A DNA stretch of 64,000 bases from a virus (Duplodnaviria > Caudoviricetes). The notes beneath the pieces were generated by a model that searched no databases, was not told the origin of the DNA, and saw only the letters and a list, made by a program, of their open reading frames with translations. Shown here piece after piece: positions 14,705-37,208 of this stretch. The stretch spans positions 32,001 through 96,000 of the IMG/VR virus record IMGVR_UViG_3300030376_007544; one strand, given 5' to 3'. Made by a program: the position numbers and the translations under genes. Within the stretch, counting starts at the first letter, position 1. Every line of letters starts with the position of its first letter.

Positions 14705-15514
14705 GGCTTCAATCCAATCCTGAATAAGATTCGGACTCACACCCCTAGAGTTGGCACCAGAATAGGGGCAACACAAACAACAACACATTCAACGAAACAT
14801 TGAAATACAACTAAACAACTCATGGATATTCCCCGATTTACTTAGGTGAGTCGGGGAACTTTCCTGGAATCCGAGAAAGCTCGGAATTGCTACGGTCAAG
14901 TTATTCTGGTCAAACTGCAGCCAATCATCCGAACTCAAGCAGCCAATCGATTCGAACTCAAAAAGCCCCGTATATATCGGGACTAAATAAGAAGCTGAAT
15001 GAAATCGTGAGCTTAGCTGCTGCTGCGAGCTGAGCTTAGCCGCTAAAAAGTGACGAAAAGTGACGAAAGTGACGAAAAGTTCGAAACTTTTTTACCATCC
15101 TATCAAAAGTTTTTGAAAATTGCAACTTTTTGCCGAAAAACCAGGGAGCTTAGCCGCTGAATCAGCCGCTACACGCTGCAAATCGAAGTCGATTCAGCAG
15201 GTAAGTCCCGTAATAATCGGGACATATTAAGGTTGGCCTGACCTGACCTGCCATCCCAGCAGCCATCCAAGTGTTAGGTATGCTTAACACGAAATGTTAG
15301 GTACGCTTAACATTAGAACCGAACAAGTGTTCGTTTATGTCATTTATGTTACAGAAAAAGAAATTTAAGAAAATCTTGCGTAAAACTTGCAATTGTCACA
15401 CCCACCACCTAAGATGGTGTTTACATAGATGAGGCACCTGCCAAGTAGGTGAAGAGTCTGGGTAAGAGTCCCAGAAGGTGCCACATTGTAAACACCTATA
15501 GGAAAGAAAAACAT

Positions 15515-15760
15515 ATGCTTACACGTATGCATTTCGACACTGTAGCGAATAGCTTAAGGCTTAGGCTTGAAGCACTTATTGACAACCTCAATAGAGCGCC
15601 TCAAATCCACATGGAAGCCGTTAAGGTATGGCACGCAATCGCTTGCGATATGCGCACCATGTTCGCTGGAAGTAACCCTAGATTTGATGAAGAAAAGTTT
15701 AACGACGCTTCTGGAATCACTTCAGTGGAATACTTTCTCCCCAGTGTCAAAACCGACTAA
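15515..15760 (+). CDS. hypothetical phage protein
   Basis: LTRxHF...NPRFDxxKF motif; promoter and structured leader upstream. Confidence 0.7.
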   Translation: MLTRMHFDTVANSLRLRLEALIDNLNRAPQIHMEAVKVWHAIACDMRTMFAGSNPRFDEEKFNDASGITSVEYFLPSVKTD

Positions 15761-16067
15761 GAGTCGGAGTCCGGCGGAACTCGGCAACAGAATCCGCCCA
15801 AATAAATAGCCAACCTAAACAAATACTCCGCTGAAAGGGCGGGGTATTTGCCTGGAATCGAGAAAGTTCGAAAACCCTACGGTCAAGCTACGGTCAAGCT
15901 TTTGAGCTGGTCGGCAGGTCAAAACTCAAGTCGATCCCAATCAGTCCCGAATATAACTGGACTATCTAACCGTTCTTTTGTTTAATTCGAGCTTAAGGAC
16001 CACCCAGGCAAAGGTTCCCGACTTGTCTGACGGGAACCTTTTTTAATCCGGTATTTAGTTTGGAACC

Positions 16068-16160
16068 TTATCGCTTTTTGGGCGGTATACAACTTTTCAG
16101 TATGTAAAACCACACCATAGCAAATCCTACTGGACCTACTAGAGCAAATACAATTTCCAT
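16068..16160 (-). CDS. 30-aa membrane peptide
   Basis: MEIVFALVGPVGFAMVWFYILKSCIPPKKR; own promoter and terminator. Confidence 0.6.
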   Translation of the reverse strand: MEIVFALVGPVGFAMVWFYILKSCIPPKKR

Positions 16161-16302
16161 GTATTTCTTTCTGAGTGATTAAGTACTTCTTAACCTCTCA
16201 CCTTCAATACTAGGTGCAAATATCATAAATTGCAACCTTAAAACAAAAAAAATAAAAAATAACCCCTGATCCGAAGATCAAGGGCTACTTTTGTTATTAG
16301 TT

Positions 16303-16566
16303 TTAGCCTATTCCTGCGAACTTATTAAATTCAGCCTCTTCAGCGATTGTTAGTTCTCTAGGTTGTTGGTTGTGGATTTCTAACCCCCACATTGTTCGGT
16401 GCATATGCTCAATCTCTTTAGCCTGTCTGTAGTCTTTACAAAACAGTTGTAGTATTTGACAATCAGTTTGATCGCCAGTTGGAGATTGAAACCATAAGTG
16501 TAGAGCATTATCTCTTACTTCGGTTCCGCATAAAGCTCCCTTTGTTGTTATTGTTGGTTCTATCAT
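16303..16566 (-). CDS. hypothetical protein
   Basis: Promoter, RBS and terminator bracket the ORF. Confidence 0.7.
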   Translation of the reverse strand: MIEPTITTKGALCGTEVRDNALHLWFQSPTGDQTDCQILQLFCKDYRQAKEIEHMHRTMWGLEIHNQQPRELTIAEEAEFNKFAGIG

Positions 16567-16706
16567 GTATTCCCATCTAATCCGTTAGTACTTCTAACTT
16601 CATAACTTAATCGTATCATGACCCGAAACAGATTGCAACCCCAATAGCAAAAAATTATCTAAAATAATTCTTGCTTTTGTCACACACCTATGTTAAGGTA
16701 ATAAAC

Positions 16707-16859
16707 ATGATAAACAAACTAAAAGACAACGGACATAAGTGGAAGGCACTTGATGGAGATGTTCGGTGTGTTGTGTGTGATGCACGGCCATCGGGAGCAT
16801 CTGCCAAAAAGTTGTGCATACGCTTTGATCTGGAGAGAATGCAAGGCTCTAAAATATGA
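16707..16859 (+). CDS. small Cys/His protein, leaderless
   Basis: TTGCTT-17-TAAGGT then ATG; H...CxxC...C. Confidence 0.6.
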   Translation: MINKLKDNGHKWKALDGDVRCVVCDARPSGASAKKLCIRFDLERMQGSKI

Positions 16860-16957
16860 TTACAATTCTAGTCACATTTGGAGTTGGAGTGATAGTTGGA
16901 ATACTTATCGCAACTTACTTAGAGCATGGGGCAATACTTTTGCCCGATGACGAGTAG
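16856..16957 (+). CDS. 33-aa membrane peptide
   Basis: ATGA overlap with the upstream stop; MITILVTFGVGVIVGILIATYL... Confidence 0.6.
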   Translation: MITILVTFGVGVIVGILIATYLEHGAILLPDDE

Positions 16958-16989
16958 CAAACTCTACGGTCAGACTATTTCGCAAAAAG

Positions 16990-17207
16990 ATTGAGTGTCC
17001 TGACGGGTACATAAGGACCAACGGCAGTTGGCGGTATTGTTGGGGTGTGGTAGGAATACTGCACTAAAGCGACACACTCTAGGGAATCGAGCCTACTTTC
17101 GGGGACAGATAGCAATATGTCCAGTCCGATAGGGCTAGCCGTACCAAGCGGTTGAGTACTCCTTAATCCCTAACCCCACCTTCGTGCTGAGGGTGGGGTA
17201 TTCTTTT
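16990..17207 (+). ncRNA. candidate structured RNA
   Basis: No ORF, GC-richer, several stems, ends in an intrinsic terminator. Confidence 0.35.
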
Positions 17208-17229
17208 ACCCCACCCCCTACGGTCAGCA

Positions 17230-17481
17230 CTACCGTCGGTTGTAGCGCCTTCGGTTAAACGCCCGACATGTACGGCAGTTAGTCGCCAACTTCTCTTCGC
17301 CCTGATAGACGTAAGTGAATTGCTCCACTTTCAACCATTGACGACAAGTGCGACATATGTACATCTCGCCCTTCGCAGCTCGTTTAATGGCTTCAAGATC
17401 AGTGTGGTCGTGGTTGTCTTCCATGACACTGGCACGATCCATTCTTGCCTTTAACTTAGTCGCTTGAAAACGATCTTTCAT
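17230..17481 (-). CDS. Zn-finger protein
   Basis: Two CRTC motifs; GGAGGTG RBS. Confidence 0.7.
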   Translation of the reverse strand: MKDRFQATKLKARMDRASVMEDNHDHTDLEAIKRAAKGEMYICRTCRQWLKVEQFTYVYQGEEKLATNCRTCRAFNRRRYNRR

Positions 17482-17678
17482 AATTCACCTCCTTAGGTAA
17501 TTTGTCTTACACTACATATAGGCACCAAAGTCGTAAAAAGCGGACATAAAAATAAAAATAATTTATTTTGCTTAAAGGGTTGCATTCGGGCCACAAAGAT
17601 GCTACGCTGGTAATTACCAAGTTGGAAGTACCAATTTGGCTCAAGTCGGAAGTACTGACTTGATTAAGGAGATATTCG

Positions 17679-17822
17679 ATGCAAAGAGAATTGAACTGCA
17701 AATGTGTTAGATGTGACAAATTGTACACAACTAGCAAACTAGCAGGAATAGATCGCAAAGGTTTCTGCATTAACTGTTGGCAACACCAACGAAATATATG
17801 GAGACTCGTAAGATCAACATAA
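17679..17822 (+). CDS. 47-aa Zn-finger protein
   Basis: CVRC...CINC; AAGGAG RBS. Confidence 0.65.
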   Translation: MQRELNCKCVRCDKLYTTSKLAGIDRKGFCINCWQHQRNIWRLVRST

Positions 17823-18084
17823 ACATAAACTAAAACATAAAGTTTCGTGAAGAAGTTTTCTCATTTTCCTTCTTCATGAAACATTCCCAAAAAGACCCAC
17901 ACTTTTTCATTTTCTTTCGAGTGTGGGTCTTTTTCTGTCCAGCTACATAATACAAAATCAAAAAAATACTAAGAGTTGTATTTATATCGGGACTTTCTTA
18001 CTTACCCTTCCTTCTATTACACCTCTATGGTGTCCCTATGGTGTCCCTACCCAGGCAGAAGGGGAGCCGAAGCCCCCCTCCAAA

Positions 18085-18279
18085 TTAAGACGCTTTTTTA
18101 GCGTTGAGTTTTTTGAAGTAAGGAGTGACATCATCAACCACTTTTTCACCGTAGTGAATTTCAGTGGCGATTACCATGTCTCCACAGTCCCTTATTTCTT
18201 GGGCTTTTTCTTCGAGCTCATATTCACATACGATTTCCGAAGTGCCTTCGTTATAAGCAATTAATAAGAATTCTCTCAT
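18085..18279 (-). CDS. hypothetical protein
   Basis: RBS, promoter and terminator bracket the ORF. Confidence 0.6.
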   Translation of the reverse strand: MREFLLIAYNEGTSEIVCEYELEEKAQEIRDCGDMVIATEIHYGEKVVDDVTPYFKKLNAKKAS

Positions 18280-18730
18280 TGTTTTCTTTCTATCTGATTG
18301 AGACTCTCTCAACCCGATAACTTAACTCTAACAGGGTTTGAGAAAAAACACAACCTTTTTTCAAAAAAAAATAAAATAATTTTTTCCTCTATTTTGTTAG
18401 GTATGCTTAACATCAAATGTTAGCTACGCCTAACACTTTTACTGGTCGAGTGGCCTGAAATTGAAAAATCAAGCTGACTTTGTGAAACTTTTCACAAACT
18501 ATCGAGGAGTTTGTCGATATTTGGCCTCAAAAAGTCCCGATTATATCGGGGGCCTCTGAGGTCGAAAACTCTACGGTCAGCTCACGGTCAGCTTGCCCGC
18601 CCACCCGTAAAGTCCCGTATATATCGGGGCTTAAAGACCTCGAAACTCGAACGGCCACTCAAAAGCTCGTATACCAGGCGAAATCCACCGCACTCATAAT
18701 GCGGTGGAAGCCTCCTTCGGTTAAGAAGTT

Positions 18731-19111
18731 TTACCGTCTTGGTTGTGTAACTTTGACGGAAGAAACTTCTTTGATGTTGATCGCTTTACCAACAAGATCG
18801 CTATCTAGCCACCCTGCTTCAACCGCACCGTCAATAAGTTTCATCTCACCGACTCGCTTGGTAACACGTTGGTGTTGCCCTTGCGGAAGAATCGCTTTCA
18901 GAACATCGTTGTCAATAGATCGTCTGTTTTGATTCACTATTGCAACTTTCGTTCCGTCTGCGAGGGTTACGCTTTCAACTTCTAACGCTCGGAAAGCAAG
19001 TTCTGCTTCCTCAACCGCTTCCCTTGCTTCTGCAAGAGCGCTCCGTGCTTCCACGACTCGCTGTGCGGTTAGTTCGCTGATCTTGCGATCATTCACTAAT
19101 AAAGTATCCAT
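18731..19111 (-). CDS. hypothetical protein, paralogue of 25023-25406
   Basis: Near-identical VESVTLADGTKVAIV...LPQGQHQRVTKRVG. Confidence 0.85.
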   Translation of the reverse strand: MDTLLVNDRKISELTAQRVVEARSALAEAREAVEEAELAFRALEVESVTLADGTKVAIVNQNRRSIDNDVLKAILPQGQHQRVTKRVGEMKLIDGAVEAGWLDSDLVGKAINIKEVSSVKVTQPRR

Positions 19112-19656
19112 GTCGGACCCTTTCTCTAATTCAGAAGCCTATCTGGGACTCTCACCCTGACTCTTCACCTAATGGCTAGACTCCTGTTTTCTTTGATATA
19201 TCCAGGTTACCATCGTTGTGAGACAAAACCACCCGGTTTTTCAAAAAAATTTCAAATAATTTTTTTCGTAACATAAATGACATATTTGTTAAGTTCGCCT
19301 AACAGGCCATGTTCACGCTTGCGAACAGATTATGTTAAGTGCACCTAACAAACGATGTTAAGCAGAGCTAACAAATAAAAAAATAAAAAAAATAAAAAAA
19401 ACTTGACAAAAGGTTGTTTTTGTGAAAGCAGCGTGCAGGTCAAAATCGAGGTCAGTATGTCCCGATTATTACGGGACTCTCTTCCTTCTATTAAGCCTCT
19501 ATGGTGTCCCTACCGCATGACCTGCAGCAGCGCTGACCAGTACCCGCCCAGGAAGAAGCCCTAGCAGGAAAATGAGTGAAACCTGCTAGGGCTTTCGGAC
19601 ATCGCATCAGTAGTTAGCAAAACTAGGTTACTAATCAGTAGTGCGATCCTCCGATT

Positions 19657-19794
19657 TTATGAGGAGAGATGTTTCGCTAGTTTGGGGTGCTCCCTTAGCG
19701 TCTTCTCTCTTACTTCACGCTCATGATGCCTGTGCATCGTTTTGGCGAGCGTAGCGTATAAGAGCGCTCCTATTATGTAAAGTGCTAATGTCAT
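19657..19794 (-). CDS. 45-aa membrane-anchored peptide
   Basis: MTLALYIIGALLYATLAK...; GAAAGG RBS; own promoter. Confidence 0.6.
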   Translation of the reverse strand: MTLALYIIGALLYATLAKTMHRHHEREVREKTLREHPKLAKHLSS

Positions 19795-20016
19795 TGTTTA
19801 CCTTTCGTTTTAACGACAAGTACCACCGTATCAAAGATTCAACTACATTGCAACACCGAAAAGCTAAAAAATTAAATAATTATTTTTACGCTAAATACTT
19901 GCAATTGTCTCACGGGCCCTGTAGCATGGAATGTATAAAGAAAAGCGAGTAGTCCGCCGTAAGGACTGGTTCGAGTGAAAGCCTCGAAGGACTGCTCCCA
20001 AGTAGAAAGGTAAAGC

Positions 20017-20352
20017 ATGAAACTAATCACTGCTGATCAACGTAAACGGCTTCTGGCAAACCACGAAGCCAATCTCGAAGGAGAAGGAGGGATCGACCAC
20101 AAACCTGTAGTGAAAATATTCACGGCAGGGGCAGGGGCGACATGGTTGCTTACAGAGATGGACGAAGATGGAATCTTCTTCGGCCTATGTGATCTTGGTC
20201 TGGGGTTTCCAGAACTAGGTTATGTCTCTCAAAGTGAATTTGATTCACTTCCTGCAAATATGTTCCTCGAACGTGATGCATGGTTTACGGCTACGAAAAC
20301 CCTTAGCGAGTACGCTTCGGAAGCCCGTGGCCTGCGACGAATCGCTGCTTAA
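20017..20352 (+). CDS. DUF2958-family protein
   Basis: PVVKIF...ATWLLTE...FGLCDLGLGFPELGYVS...ERD. Confidence 0.85.
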   Translation: MKLITADQRKRLLANHEANLEGEGGIDHKPVVKIFTAGAGATWLLTEMDEDGIFFGLCDLGLGFPELGYVSQSEFDSLPANMFLERDAWFTATKTLSEYASEARGLRRIAA

Positions 20353-20523
20353 TCGGATGCCTCCGGCCTTCTGGTCGGGGGTATTTCCCTGGGTGGCCAT
20401 AAATAAAAATCGACTACCCGTGAAGTCCCGATATAGTCGGGGCATCCTGACCTCGACCTGACCTGACCTGACCAACCAGGAAAAATCCCCCAACACTTTC
20501 GTGCTGAGGGATGAACCTACACG

Positions 20524-20658
20524 TTATCCGTGACAGAGATCATGCATGTGGCGGAGATCTTCGTCCCAATCCCACATCATCTCCATAAGGTCTTCCTTAC
20601 TCATGAGTGGTTCTGCTTCGACCCACTCTCCGTCTTCATTTCTGGTCCATTCAGTCAT
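20524..20658 (-). CDS. 44-aa acidic, Trp-rich peptide
   Basis: GGAG RBS; own promoter and terminator. Confidence 0.6.
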   Translation of the reverse strand: MTEWTRNEDGEWVEAEPLMSKEDLMEMMWDWDEDLRHMHDLCHG

Positions 20659-20992
20659 TTTATCTCCGATCTGAATCTACAAGCTTCCACTTTGAAGGCC
20701 TGATATATCCAGATTACCATGACCACTTCATAATTGCAACCCCAAATAAAAATTAATTAATATTTTTAGCAGCCGTTGAAAATAGCAGCCACTGAAAATG
20801 CAGCAGCAGGTCAGGTCGAGTGCAGGTCAGATCAAACACAGGTCAGGTCTGGTCAGGTCTGGTCACCCCGTAAAGCCCCGATTTATACGGGGCTAAATAA
20901 GTAAGACCACTCAGGATTTCTCCCCCTCACTCTAGGCCACCCGTAGGTGGCGAGGCCCGTTGGTCTACGGGGTGGTCTACTTACTTCGACAA

Positions 20993-21142
20993 TTAGACGA
21001 TTTCGATTTCGAATTCGCCGTTGTCGTACTTCTTGTCGCATCCGTTTCCTCGAAAGCTTCCACAGAAGACTAATCCTTCTTCGGTTGCTATCGCATCGAG
21101 TGACGAGCAGAAGATTCCACAATTATCACATTTTACTGGCAT
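20993..21142 (-). CDS. small Zn-finger protein
   Basis: CDNC...C...C; GAAAGGA RBS. Confidence 0.65.
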   Translation of the reverse strand: MPVKCDNCGIFCSSLDAIATEEGLVFCGSFRGNGCDKKYDNGEFEIEIV

Positions 21143-21392
21143 ACTGAATTCCTTTCGGTAGTTAATTATTTCAGTACTTCCAGGATACCACCGTTTGACC
21201 AGCATTGCAACATCAAATGCAAAAAAAAAGAATTTTAATTTCTTTGCAAAAACCGGGTGGTTTTGTCTCATAGTCGTGGTATCGTTCTATTTGTTGGTAA
21301 AGTACCGACATTACATACTAGCCGTAATTCTCGAATGAGTGGAAAGCCCCTGACAGTAGAAGCCTGTAGGTTCGAGTGGGAAAGGAATAGAA

Positions 21393-21761
21393 ATGTTTAC
21401 ACGAACAGATAGTGTTTGTATAGATATTAGTCAAGACGGACAAGTGCCTGTTCTAGGTTACGCTTATTCGTTCTCGAAAGCTCGTGACGAGTGGTTTGGC
21501 TACGTCGCTGTCAGAGAGGGTATGCTCTCTTCTGAAATGCGATACGTAGTTAAACAAATGCACCGTATCACGAAGTACGGAGAGGACGTATGGGAAGTAA
21601 TCGAAGGAACTACTGTCGAAGGTACCGATCCTGTAGAATCAGGAATACGGAACAACCGACAAAGTGCACTCGTTACACTGTCGAAATTGTCTTTAGATTT
21701 ATTTCGGGGTAACGACTATGTTGATTACGGAACCGTAATGAACATCCCACCACTTGGCTAA
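21393..21761 (+). CDS. hypothetical protein
   Basis: RBS, promoter and terminator. Confidence 0.7.
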   Translation: MFTRTDSVCIDISQDGQVPVLGYAYSFSKARDEWFGYVAVREGMLSSEMRYVVKQMHRITKYGEDVWEVIEGTTVEGTDPVESGIRNNRQSALVTLSKLSLDLFRGNDYVDYGTVMNIPPLG

Positions 21762-21977: not shown

Positions 21978-22251
21978 GAAAAGCCCACCGAACTTCGGTG
22001 GATCGGTTCTTCACTCTCTACTTGCGAAGGGTATCTTGTTTGCCATTTAGGTTCGCCCTCCACCTTGCAAGGTTTTTGAGGAGTCCGCACCGTACCTTTC
22101 GGTTCTTTTGATGGTTTCCGTTTCCACTTCTGGTAGGTTTTTTGGTAAAAAGAACCTCTTTCCACGAAGTTCGGTGGGCCCTTAGTTGCAACCCAACCGA
22201 ATGGATATTCAGTTGTCAATTCGGGGTTTCCCCCTGCCACCCTTTCGGGCT
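21978..22251 (-). ncRNA. candidate structured ncRNA, about 275 nt
   Basis: TTGCTT-17-TAAGAT promoter; GNRA-capped stems; terminator; only an 11-codon ORF has an RBS. Confidence 0.55.
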
Positions 22252-22647
22252 ACGCCCATCTTAACATAAGGGTGAGACAAAAGCAACCTTTGTCCAACAA
22301 TTTCTTAAATAATTTTTTATTCCCAGTAGCGGCAAAATAGCGGCAAAATAGCAGCGAAAATCTGTCGTTTTTGAAAGTTTTTGACAAAAAACGGGAGACC
22401 AGCGGGCAGGCCAGTAGAAAATTTGGCAAAACTAATCAAAAATGACAGTTTTTGCTCAGCTCAGGCAGAGCTAAAAGGAGCAAAAGATGAAGGAGGTCAG
22501 GTCAAAGTTTACCTGAGGTCTAATAGCCCCGACTATATCGGGACCCGGTTAGGTATGCTTAACTCTTTTTGTTAGGTTGGCTTAACATCACTCTAAAAGG
22601 ACATGCAGAAACCCCGACCCTTTCGGGCCGGAGTTCGCTGCTGGGAT

Positions 22648-25022: not shown

Positions 25023-25406
25023 TTATCGCTTTGGTTGGGTAACTTTCAGCGATTGTACTTCTTTGACGGTGATTGCTTGGTTTACCAAGTCTCCATCTAA
25101 CCAACCTGCTTCGATTGCTCCGTCAATGAGTTTCATGTCACCGACTCGTTTGGTTACTCTTTGATGTTGTCCTTGTGGAAGAACATCTTTGAGAACCTCA
25201 TTGTCAATGCTTCGTCTATTTTGTGTGACGATTGCAACTTTGGTTCCGTCTGCAAGAGTTACAGATTCAACATCTAACGCTTTGAATTGCGCTTCTGCTT
25301 CTTCAACTGCATCTTTTGCATCTGCTAAAGCGGAACGAAGTTCAACAACTTTTTGGGCTGCTAACTCCTCTACTTTAGTTTGGTTAATAATTACTGTTGT
25401 ATTCAT
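25023..25406 (-). CDS. hypothetical protein, paralogue of 18731-19111
   Basis: Sequence near-identity; GGAGG RBS. Confidence 0.85.
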   Translation of the reverse strand: MNTTVIINQTKVEELAAQKVVELRSALADAKDAVEEAEAQFKALDVESVTLADGTKVAIVTQNRRSIDNEVLKDVLPQGQHQRVTKRVGDMKLIDGAIEAGWLDGDLVNQAITVKEVQSLKVTQPKR

Positions 25407-28040: not shown

Positions 28041-28943
28041 ATGGCACATATGCTAACTAGAAATAAAACATGGGATCAGGGCTTATCGGCCACTGATGCT
28101 GCGTTAGATGCTGATGCTCTCTTTGAGCCACAACTAACAGGTACTATTCTTCCTAACGGAACTGTAGATGATTCGTCATTTACTATTTACCGTGATATGG
28201 CAGACGGTACTCAAGTTGTTCTCAATGCTGGCGTTAAAGAAGGCTACTATGCTGGATCATACCAATCACTTCTGAACACGGCTGAGGCCATGTTCCCTGA
28301 AAGTGTTACTGGTATGCAGACATGGGATAATGGTGCAGTTCTAGTGTTCACTCAAGATATAGAAGATACATTCTCTTTCGGTGACGGTGACTCTTTAACT
28401 AAACACATTATGTACACTGCTAGTCTTAACAGCACCTACAAAACAAAAGCAATCGGTTTTACGTTCCGACCTTTCTGTACTAACCAAGAGGGACAAGGTA
28501 CTCTCCAAATTGCACAGAAGCGAACTCGTAACCACGATGGCTTACTGTTCCAAAAAGCTCAGATAATGTCAAGTTATGCTGATGCTTTTGATAGGTTCAT
28601 CACCAATGCAACTATGCTCAAAGGTTTACCGATGACCAGTGGTCTACGGAACACAATCCTTGACGAAGTTGCTCCACTGTTGGACTTTGATCCAGACGCT
28701 AACACGAAAGCAATAAATGCTGCGCAGAAGCGTCGTGATGGAATCATGTACTACTACGAGGAAGAAGCAAATACCTTCGGGCATAACGCTTACTCTCTCT
28801 ATCAAGCAGTACAGTCTTACGAGTACCACATCGGTACTAAAGGTAAGAGCAAACAACTGAAACAAGTTAATGTTGTATCCGATCCGGCAAAGGCTCAAAG
28901 CCTTACCATTCGGACTGGCGACATGCTACTTGCGTCAGTCTAA
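28041..28943 (+). CDS. DUF932-like phage/plasmid protein
   Basis: R-x-x-CTN motif; C-terminal AYSLYQAVQSYExH; typical size. Confidence 0.65.
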   Translation: MAHMLTRNKTWDQGLSATDAALDADALFEPQLTGTILPNGTVDDSSFTIYRDMADGTQVVLNAGVKEGYYAGSYQSLLNTAEAMFPESVTGMQTWDNGAVLVFTQDIEDTFSFGDGDSLTKHIMYTASLNSTYKTKAIGFTFRPFCTNQEGQGTLQIAQKRTRNHDGLLFQKAQIMSSYADAFDRFITNATMLKGLPMTSGLRNTILDEVAPLLDFDPDANTKAINAAQKRRDGIMYYYEEEANTFGHNAYSLYQAVQSYEYHIGTKGKSKQLKQVNVVSDPAKAQSLTIRTGDMLLASV

Positions 28944-35766: not shown

Positions 35767-36093
35767 CTAGCGCATTCGAGTACCGCACTTCAGACAAAAC
35801 TCTGACCAAGGATAAACTTGACGATCATCCAACGGATGTGTACAAGAAAAGATTTCACGCCATCTTGTATCAGCCATCTGACGAAGCCACTCAGAAACAG
35901 AACAACTATCTGCTTCAGCAGCTGCCGCCCACTGGTCACGCTGAGTTTCAGAAACCCTAATTAAAACTTGTTTATCACGGGATTCTTCAATTAACTCCTC
36001 AGGTTCGCTAAGCTCTTCAAGCAAAGCTGCCTCAATATTAGATTTCTTCACTTCATCTGAGCGAAGAACTTCCTTCATATACTCAGTAGTCAT
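35767..36093 (-). CDS. ribbon-helix-helix-like protein with Zn finger
   Basis: VLIRVSETQRDQW..AA....SVSEWLR; CTH...CLKC. Confidence 0.6.
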   Translation of the reverse strand: MTTEYMKEVLRSDEVKKSNIEAALLEELSEPEELIEESRDKQVLIRVSETQRDQWAAAAEADSCSVSEWLRQMADTRWREIFSCTHPLDDRQVYPWSEFCLKCGTRMR

Positions 36094-36821: not shown

Positions 36822-37208
36822 TCAACTCCGATTTAAATACGACCAAATCTGCGCTAATGTGAAACGCTCTGCCTTAACACCACGACGTTGAGCTTCAGCA
36901 GCCAACTGACGGGGAGTCAAACCAGCCCAAACTCCGTGAAGGTCTGATGGGGGAAAACTGAGGGCATAATCGAGACATTCTTTACGTACATCACACTGTC
37001 TACACATACGTCTAGCCTCTGATATATAGGACAGGTCTTTGTGTTCTTTGGGGAACATCTTGTCCGATTTACCTTTGCAAAGTGCTTCTTGTGACCAGTG
37101 TTGAGTGGGTTCTGGTGGGTTATTGTGGGGTGAAGTGGGATCGTTTTCGGAGGGGTGTGGTTGTATAGTAGTCTTTGTGGTTTTGGTTATTTTGTGTAGT
37201 TTATTCAT
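36822..37208 (-). CDS. whiB: WhiB-family Fe-S transcription factor
   Basis: W...ALC, CxxC-x5-C, GVWAG turn. Confidence 0.92.
   Translation of the reverse strand: MNKLHKITKTTKTTIQPHPSENDPTSPHNNPPEPTQHWSQEALCKGKSDKMFPKEHKDLSYISEARRMCRQCDVRKECLDYALSFPPSDLHGVWAGLTPRQLAAEAQRRGVKAERFTLAQIWSYLNRS

Follow-up and report, generated by a model that had tools for sequence, protein, structure and literature searches.

A previously uncatalogued family of structured leader RNAs, about 50 nucleotides (nt) long, is encoded in three copies in the DNA of an uncultured marine phage, and each copy is predicted to stand in the 5′ leader of a different small gene. The stretch analyzed here (the window, 64,000 nt) comprises bases 32001–96000 of the 128,360-bp IMG/VR record IMGVR_UViG_3300030376_007544, with an estimated completeness of 87%. 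A previous reading made from the letters of the window (the sequence-only reading) had proposed that three sites, here c1, c2 and c3, together with a looser fourth, c4, carry a covarying three-way-junction RNA upstream of unrelated genes, and that this RNA was undescribed. Re-read from the sequence, all four sites stand as that reading gave them, and covariance models and comparison with relatives establish c1, c2 and c3 as members of one structured RNA family; c4, as discussed below, could not be recovered as a member. Coordinates are collected in Table 1.

A three-way junction maintained by covariation

The fold consists of a closing helix, P1 (7–12 bp), a GCC-loop-GG(U) helix, P2, a purine linker, and a 6-bp helix, P3, that abuts the 3′ arm of P1. 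In c1 it reads GGCACCU-GCC-AAGUA-GGU-GAAGAG-UCUGGG-UAAGAGU-CCCAGA-AGGUGCC; in c2, AGGAGUCUA-GCC-AUUA-GGU-GAAGAG-UCAGGG-UGAGAGU-CCCAGA-UAGGCUUCU, with a single A·A mismatch within P3; and in c3, GAGUAGUCC-GCC-GUAA-GG-ACUGG-UUCGAG-UGAAAGC-CUCGAA-GGACUGCUC. P1 can be extended in c1 by GAUG/CAUU over a 1 × 1 mismatch, to span 15428–15487, and amounts to 10 bp in c2 when a flanking C-G pair is included. For all three copies the RNAfold minimum is the three-way junction, with z-scores of −3.5 for c1 (−21.4 kcal/mol), −0.5 for c2 and −3.1 for c3.

Relatives were obtained by fetching the DNA around several marine-metagenome homologs of the 126-amino-acid (aa) protein encoded after c2, which has about 90 homologs in marine metagenomes (Tara, ENA, JGI). 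A covariance model built from c1 only (R1) gave two to four strong matches per related marine contig and found c2 at E 6.5e-9. The family model (R2), built from 23 matches, returned 35 matches, 20 of them distinct, and scored c1 at 74.9 bits (E 3.7e-19) and c2 at 57 bits; it defines the family as P1, GCC-loop-GGU/GGA, a purine junction, a 6-bp P3, a U-N-R-R-A-G-Y loop closed by G-C and the returning arm of P1, located after a TTGnnn-N16–19-TAnnnT promoter. With filters off, R2 placed the diverged c3 at 21.2 bits (E 9e-4), the next match standing at 12.1 bits. The position of c3, before a DUF2958 gene, is taken by strong family members in the distant relatives L023, L025, L027 and L032, and intermediates in L032 (GCC-AUGA-GGACAGGG) connect c3 with the main type. 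A strict descriptor of the element matched c1 and c3 only in the 128-kb genome, where shuffles lead one to expect 0.125 matches, although this test is weak because the descriptor was written after the copies had been seen.

Covariation across the family supports the fold that had been proposed from the window. In the model-fitted alignment of 20 distinct sequences, 96.2% of cells make standard pairs, and 12 of the 16 pairs show changes on both sides: five of the six in P3 and all seven in P1, whose sequence varies yet stays paired, as the sequence-only reading had claimed. When the 3′ partners were slid by one to three columns, pairing was 32–52%, and the observed covariation score was equaled by none of 500 shuffles. 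The c2 ortholog in relative L022 carries compensatory changes in P1 and in P3. The inner P1 pairs are semi-conserved, with Y-Y-Y facing R-R-R, and near-invariance is concentrated in GCC...GGU, the purine junction GARGAG and the 7-nt loop U-R-R-R-A-G-U closed by G-C, from which c3 deviates. P3, with its covariation, was also recovered de novo by RNAalifold from a structure-blind MAFFT alignment. P1 was not, because rows that differ in P2-loop length become misregistered in MAFFT alignments; the figures for P1 were taken from the model-fitted alignment (A7), which tends to favor the model structure.

Each copy points in the same direction as the gene that follows it, and G·U pairs, including the invariant G·U of P2, occur on the gene strand only; RNA is therefore favored over a DNA palindrome. 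The surrounding region is extremely repeat-rich and holds many DNA palindromes, as would be expected if the copies were remnants of duplicated cassette DNA, or a protein-bound DNA palindrome, with no function as RNA. However, compensatory changes keep two helices in at least 20 distinct sequences, the G·U pairs would be A·C on the other strand, the arms differ among copies and so provide no common DNA site, and the element is more conserved than its flanks. This explanation is strongly disfavored, and its probability is close to negligible. Between the window and a 94% relative (L020), the three elements together are identical at 144 of 146 positions, against about 90% for adjacent coding sequence and promoter flank; the individual figures are 49/50 for c1, with flanks at roughly 80–94%, and 47/47 for c3.

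Searches of existing collections bear out that the family had not been described. Rfam 15 (4227 models) yielded no match to it, even with the search space set at 80 nt: a 7-kb search gave nothing on the copies at E ≤ 10, and the 80-nt search gave none on c1 and two noise matches (E 7 and 8.1, opposite strand) around the copy of a relative. The sole gathering-level Rfam match in the window is a tRNA at 1178–1250. In IMG/VR, the exact core pattern GGTGAAGAGTCNGGGTRAGAGTCCC had no matches, and the 15 matches to a looser core pattern were set aside as chance, all lying in coding sequence without P3 complementarity. The family pattern matched once in IMG/VR and seven times in 185,579 prokaryote genomes, in every case without P3 and by chance, so that pattern scans recovered no true members in those genomes, nor in IMG/VR outside this record. 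Among JGI metagenome contigs the same pattern returned 23 loci; of the 23 model matches, 21 come from the same phage lineage and contribute few new variants. A further route to relatives, through the SNF2 helicase of the window, was abandoned as useless for the region of interest after yielding two contigs that both stop at the helicase. Within the collections searched, the family occurs only in a single lineage of uncultured marine phages.

The two hairpin loops of the element vary together. All 17 distinct members with a 5-nt P2 loop (AAGNA) have A as the second nucleotide of the P3 loop; of the 11 with a 4-nt P2 loop (AUNA or GUAA), 10 have G there and one has U, for a concordance of 27/28. 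These raw counts are inflated by common descent. Nevertheless, the switch recurs at orthologous sites where P1 and P3 are unchanged (for example, L027:19687 versus L023:19964), as well as within the leaders of DUF2958 and of a 131-aa gene; three or more concordant switches and not one discordant case suggest, despite common descent, a tertiary docking contact between the P2 and P3 loops that may resemble the elbow of tRNA. The sequence-only reading had identified the P3 loop as a T-loop module like those of the FMN and cobalamin riboswitches. U1, A5 and the closing G-C pair are indeed present in 28 of 28 distinct members, and the pattern fits a putative T-loop docked to the P2 loop; the likeness to those riboswitches is one loop motif, not membership.

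It would be conceivable that such an RNA serves as a tRNA-like processing signal, its P1/P3 stack and T-loop elbow being read by RNase P, RNase Z or other tRNA enzymes, with the leader trimmed or a small RNA released as the outcome. The resemblance to the tRNA elbow and to T-loop modules generally extends to several features: a 7-nt loop of the form G-[U...A..]-C, with U1 and A5, is closed by G-C; no spacer separates the 3′ strands of P3 and P1, just as the T stem passes directly into the acceptor; and P2 stands at the place of a reduced D arm, with a loop that co-varies with position 2 of the T-like loop. But the element lacks an anticodon arm, UUC and any conserved discriminator or CCA-like tail (the 3′ flanks are ACA, ACC, CCU, CUG and UCC), its P1 and P3 stack is a variable 13–18 bp in place of the fixed 12-bp ruler, and positions 6–7 of its loop (GU) are invariant where those of tRNA are variable. 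ARAGORN, which reports only a tRNA-Glu at 1178–1251, and the Rfam models for tRNA and transfer-messenger RNA are blank on the copies. We consider a tRNA-like role quite improbable.

Predicted promoters, leaders and downstream genes

The element occupies a nearly constant place between a predicted promoter and a start codon. A TTGnnn-N16–19-TAnnnT motif ends 16–21 nt upstream of it in 31 of 39 distinct contexts, as compared with 2% of random positions, and the first ATG follows 20–32 nt downstream in 38 of 39. A generic sigma-70 scan did not call these promoters, because TTGCAA and TAAGAT each match consensus at only four of six positions; the promoter inference therefore rests on conservation. 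Transcription is predicted to start near A15423 for c1 and near A19935 for c3, and with a start site assumed about 7 nt after the −10 box, the element begins at approximately +10 to +15. The genes downstream belong to DUF2958 and at least six other small-protein families, including 126-aa, 81/77-aa, 131-aa and 64-aa families, in agreement with the earlier description of a leader upstream of unrelated genes, the leader itself being predicted. The 81-aa product encoded after c1 has no Pfam or PHROG match. The 126-aa gene after c2 has a paralog of 127 aa elsewhere in the window; their DNA is 75% identical over 300 nt, and the leader element precedes only the copy in a single-gene cassette. Contigs of four same-sample metatranscriptomes gave only spurious low-complexity matches, a result that says nothing on expression.

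Promoter and element appear to have been combined freely. The promoters of c1 and c3 are of one type and those of c2 and c4 of another, the element core groups c1 with c2, and with the variants shuffled in this way the element behaves like an independent module. Its flanks fall into three classes, ACAUAGAUGA, CAAGCAAGU and CAAAGAAAA(C), which often lengthen P1 to 9–12 bp. On the 3′ side, a GAAAGG-type Shine–Dalgarno sequence (SD) begins about 8–10 nt after P1 in most copies and is unpaired in folds of the full leader, which retain the three-way junction. No terminator was detected after the element: the 3′ flanks (ACAUUG, CUGAAU, UCCCAA) have no U-tract, and a terminator scan was blank on the sense strand of the copies. 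As a separate observation, a 7-codon frame, AUG AGG CAC CUG CCA AGU AGG UGA, lies at 15428–15451 (+); it starts about 7 nt into the predicted transcript, and it overlaps both P2 and the P1 5′ arm. An upstream open reading frame (ORF) was rejected as a general feature of the leaders, being present in the ACAUAGAUGA flank class only.

The position of the element, always promoter-proximal in early-type units whose cassettes are bounded by hairpin terminators, recalls RNA sites that act on RNA polymerase or termination, such as HK022 put and lambda nut, where the nascent element would lead to terminator read-through. The lambda nut boxB and HK022 put sites, like the T4 RegA operators and the gene 32 pseudoknot, are also multi-copy, promoter-proximal structured sites in early transcripts. 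However, the fold differs from all of these, and put RNA has a two-hairpin architecture, unlike the element. The regulated gene follows at once, with its ATG at the short distance given above and no terminator in between; neighboring cassettes are served by separate promoters (such as the promoter-like repeat at 18339–18385); and no boxA-like linear motif was seen in the flanks. Antitermination is very improbable on these grounds.

The fourth site, which had been taken for a looser copy, is not detectable as a member: R2 gives no match at E ≤ 10, and the RNAfold z-score is −0.2. The leader at 21291–21392 (+) has a fold of its own, with a 5′ hairpin (UGUUGGUAAAGUACCGACA) followed by a P1 of CUCGAA/UUCGAG, inside which lie a GG-NAAG-CC mini-hairpin and a hairpin whose loop is U-A-R-A-A-G-C. 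This fold is conserved in L020, with GCC changed to ACC, and c4 may be a remote or rearranged variant of the family with its own conserved fold. Elsewhere, at about 22170–22262 (−), a multi-branched fold of about 84 nt (UGGGC...GCCCA, with two GAAA-tetraloop hairpins) follows another promoter of the type described above (TGTCTCAC...TTAAGAT); among the fetched loci it is 99% identical in L020 and L021 only, and could be another structured leader or a small RNA.

Table 1. Leader RNA copies, predicted promoter elements and genes in the window (positions are those of the window)
Feature	Position	Strand	Details
Leader RNA copy c1	15433-15482	+	flavor 1: P2 loop AAGUA, P3 loop UAAGAGU
Leader RNA copy c2	19133-19185	-	flavor 2: P2 loop AUUA, P3 loop UGAGAGU
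Leader RNA copy c3	19947-19997	+	diverged: P2 GCC-GUAA-GG, junction ACUGG, P3 loop UGAAAGC
c4	21329-21376	+	P1 CUCGAA/UUCGAG, hairpin loop UAGAAGC; without GCC...GGU and GARGAG junction
c1 promoter (predicted)	15387-15415	+	-35 TTGCAA 15387-15392, 17-nt spacer with conserved TGTCACAC, -10 TAAGAT 15410-15415
c2 -10 (predicted)	19209-19204	-	TAACCT
c3 promoter (predicted)	19899-19927	+	-35 TTGCAA 19899-19904, 17-nt spacer with TGTCTCAC, -10 TAGCAT 19922-19927
Gene after c1	15515-15760	+	81 aa
Gene after c2	18731-19111	-	126 aa
Paralog of 126-aa gene	25023-25406	-	127 aa, inside minus-strand operon
Gene after c3	20017-20352	+	111 aa, DUF2958, Pfam PF11171, E 6.9e-31
Gene after c4	21393-21761	+	122 aa, no family match
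DUF932 protein	28041-28943	+	co-occurs with NikA-like, DUF2958
NikA-like protein	35767-36093	-	co-occurs with DUF932, DUF2958
WhiB-like gene	36822-37208	-	Pfam PF02467, E 1.4e-14

A possible shared factor, sensor or shield

The role that we tentatively favor, at somewhat less than an even chance, is that of a cis-acting post-transcriptional module of the 5′ untranslated region that sets mRNA stability and/or translation through a shared factor. It is favored because the element keeps fixed distances to the predicted 5′ end and to the ribosome-binding site, carries invariant loops on variable stems, and has no expression platform; a common binding partner is proposed because the loops and junction are invariant while the helices vary, as is the usual pattern. 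Under this model, a host sigma-A-type RNA polymerase would make the transcript, with the element starting about 10–15 nt from its 5′ end, and docking of the P2 and P3 loops, similar to that of the D-loop and T-loop in the tRNA elbow, would give a compact and rigid fold. That fold would be a roadblock near the 5′ end and would also offer a docking site to a shared trans factor, whether a phage or host protein or a nuclease, which in turn would set the half-life and/or translation of a chosen subset of early cassette mRNAs. A small-molecule ligand would not be needed.

Several observations weigh against this reading. P2 (GCC:GGU) is unproven as a helix because it never varies. The closed three-way junction is the nearest-neighbor minimum in only 11 of 28 members, the remainder preferring an extended-P2 hairpin formed by pairing of the P1 5′ arm with the junction, and this alternative fold hints at a switch, which would suit control by a ligand or factor better than a static roadblock. 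The place of the element in the leader depends on predicted start sites, and the predicted single-stranded 5′ tail measures 5–10 nt; classical 5′-terminal hairpin stabilizers (ompA, aprE) have a shorter one. No RNA-binding domain was found among the few phage proteins scanned, a set short of the full proteome. For the form of the reading in which a 30S subunit is the roadblock, complementarity to the anti-SD of 16S ribosomal RNA is no better than in shuffled elements.

This last result bears on the stabilizers of mRNA 5′ ends reviewed for Gram-positive bacteria and their phages, which include the cry3A STAB-SD, the SP82 polypurine stabilizer and 5′ stem-loops (PMC4113751, PMC3997798). The element resembles them in being promoter-proximal, purine-rich, non-coding and upstream of the ribosome-binding site, in containing AGGUGA or AAGGA, and in that it could block 5′-to-3′ decay; it differs in being a conserved fold with an inferred tertiary contact, and not a linear SD-like tract or a simple hairpin. 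A STAB-SD or 30S roadblock was rejected: the best duplexes with 16S ribosomal RNA, at −6 to −11 kcal/mol, were equaled by 10–73% of mononucleotide shuffles, and the SD-like AAGAAGGUGA lends no support because its complementarity to the 16S 3′ end does not exceed that of shuffled elements.

The extended-P2 fold might represent an intermediate of co-transcriptional folding, a genuine switch, or an artifact of ignoring tertiary contacts. Should it be a switch, the element might be a riboswitch or ligand aptamer in which the junction and docked loops form the pocket and a ligand, perhaps a host metabolite or an infection or defense signal, locks P1 against the extended-P2 hairpin and so changes the fate of the mRNA. 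Much about the architecture is compatible with this. The compact three-way junction, with covarying helices, an invariant junction and invariant loops, is what is looked for in a conserved aptamer; the inner P1 pairs are semi-conserved; and about half of the members have their energy minimum in the competing fold, in which the 3′ arm of P1 is released. As in the purine riboswitch class, P1, P2 and P3 surround a conserved junction in a 5′ leader, with covarying stems and loops that co-vary with each other. Unlike that class, the element is about 50 rather than about 70 nt long, lacks J1/2 and J3/1, has a P2 of only 3 bp, and is without Rfam similarity. Nor was an expression platform found: a terminator is lacking, and neither conformer sequesters the SD, which is purine-rich like the 3′ arm of P1 and so cannot pair with it. 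Moreover, no covariation was seen in the alternative helix, at least seven unrelated tiny genes and not a metabolic regulon follow the element, and it is confined to one phage lineage, being absent from 185,579 prokaryote genomes in the pattern scan. A riboswitch, although the chief competitor of the favored module, is in our view rather unlikely.

The invariant loops on varying stems would equally suit recognition by a protein, and the element could be an operator for a phage translational repressor or endonuclease, similar to RegA or RegB of T4, by which a middle-stage protein shuts off an early subset of genes. Several copies per genome stand on a subset of early-type cassettes, and in most copies the element ends about 8–10 nt before the SD, within the footprint of the 30S subunit. 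The limited protein scan described above, which covered only part of the proteome, gave no candidate for such a repressor in the form of an RNA-binding domain. This alternative, which is improbable as stated, also overlaps the favored post-transcriptional module and differs from it only in naming the factor and the direction of its effect.

A more general possibility, unlikely in our estimation, is that the element represents a new class of phage-borne sensors or shields: either a riboswitch gating early and possibly anti-defense genes, or the first counterpart in a prokaryotic virus of the exonuclease-resistant RNAs (xrRNAs). As a sensor, it would read a host metabolite or a signal of infection or defense; as a shield, its docked, tRNA-elbow-like junction would stop decay dependent on RNase J or RNase E. 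xrRNAs are known only from eukaryotic viruses. Those of flaviviruses and plant viruses are likewise compact three-way junctions, and the element, too, would be met by a 5′-to-3′ exonuclease before the coding region; unlike them, however, it shows no ring-closing pseudoknot between 5′ flank and loop by eye, no formal pseudoknot search having been run.

The phage, its cassette array and the reach of the family

The leaders lie in a repeat-rich array, at about 7.7–28 kb of the window, composed of small single-gene cassettes of about 1 kb each. Palindromic operators, hairpin terminators and promoters of the form TTGCnn-TGTC[T/A]CAC-N10-TAnnnT recur throughout. The array (7700–28000) also contains GTTARG-N4-CYTAAC palindromes phased at 23 bp, GTCCCG-N7-CGGGAC hairpins, polar CTACGGTCA repeats, and a TCCTTCTATTA...CTATGGTGTCCCTA repeat after some of the hairpins, and many of its cassettes are without a convincing ORF. 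The families DUF932, NikA-like and DUF2958 are typical of the leading regions of conjugative plasmids. Because members of all three occur together here, there are hints that the cassette array contains genes for host takeover or anti-defense.

The phage itself has no close cultured relative: megablast of the region against GenBank phages gave no match, and its PolA is at most 44% identical to actinophage PolA. Other products encoded in the window include a baseplate J protein, a family A DNA polymerase and an SNF2 helicase. WhiB, which is considered exclusive to actinobacteria, serves as a marker for their phages (PMC7771536); because the lineage encodes a WhiB-like protein, found in the window and in relatives L025 and L027–L030, the host is probably a marine actinobacterium.

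Structured cis-acting RNAs in the phages of uncultured marine bacteria are almost uncharted. The small size of the element (about 50 nt), its strong covariation and its apparent loop contact make it an attractive target for structural work and a possible portable expression part. Proof of ligand sensing or of nuclease resistance would make it a new class. The element marks a defined subset of hypervariable early cassette genes, namely DUF2958 and several orphan small proteins, and may therefore reveal how these phages coordinate or protect the transcripts of host-takeover and anti-defense genes.

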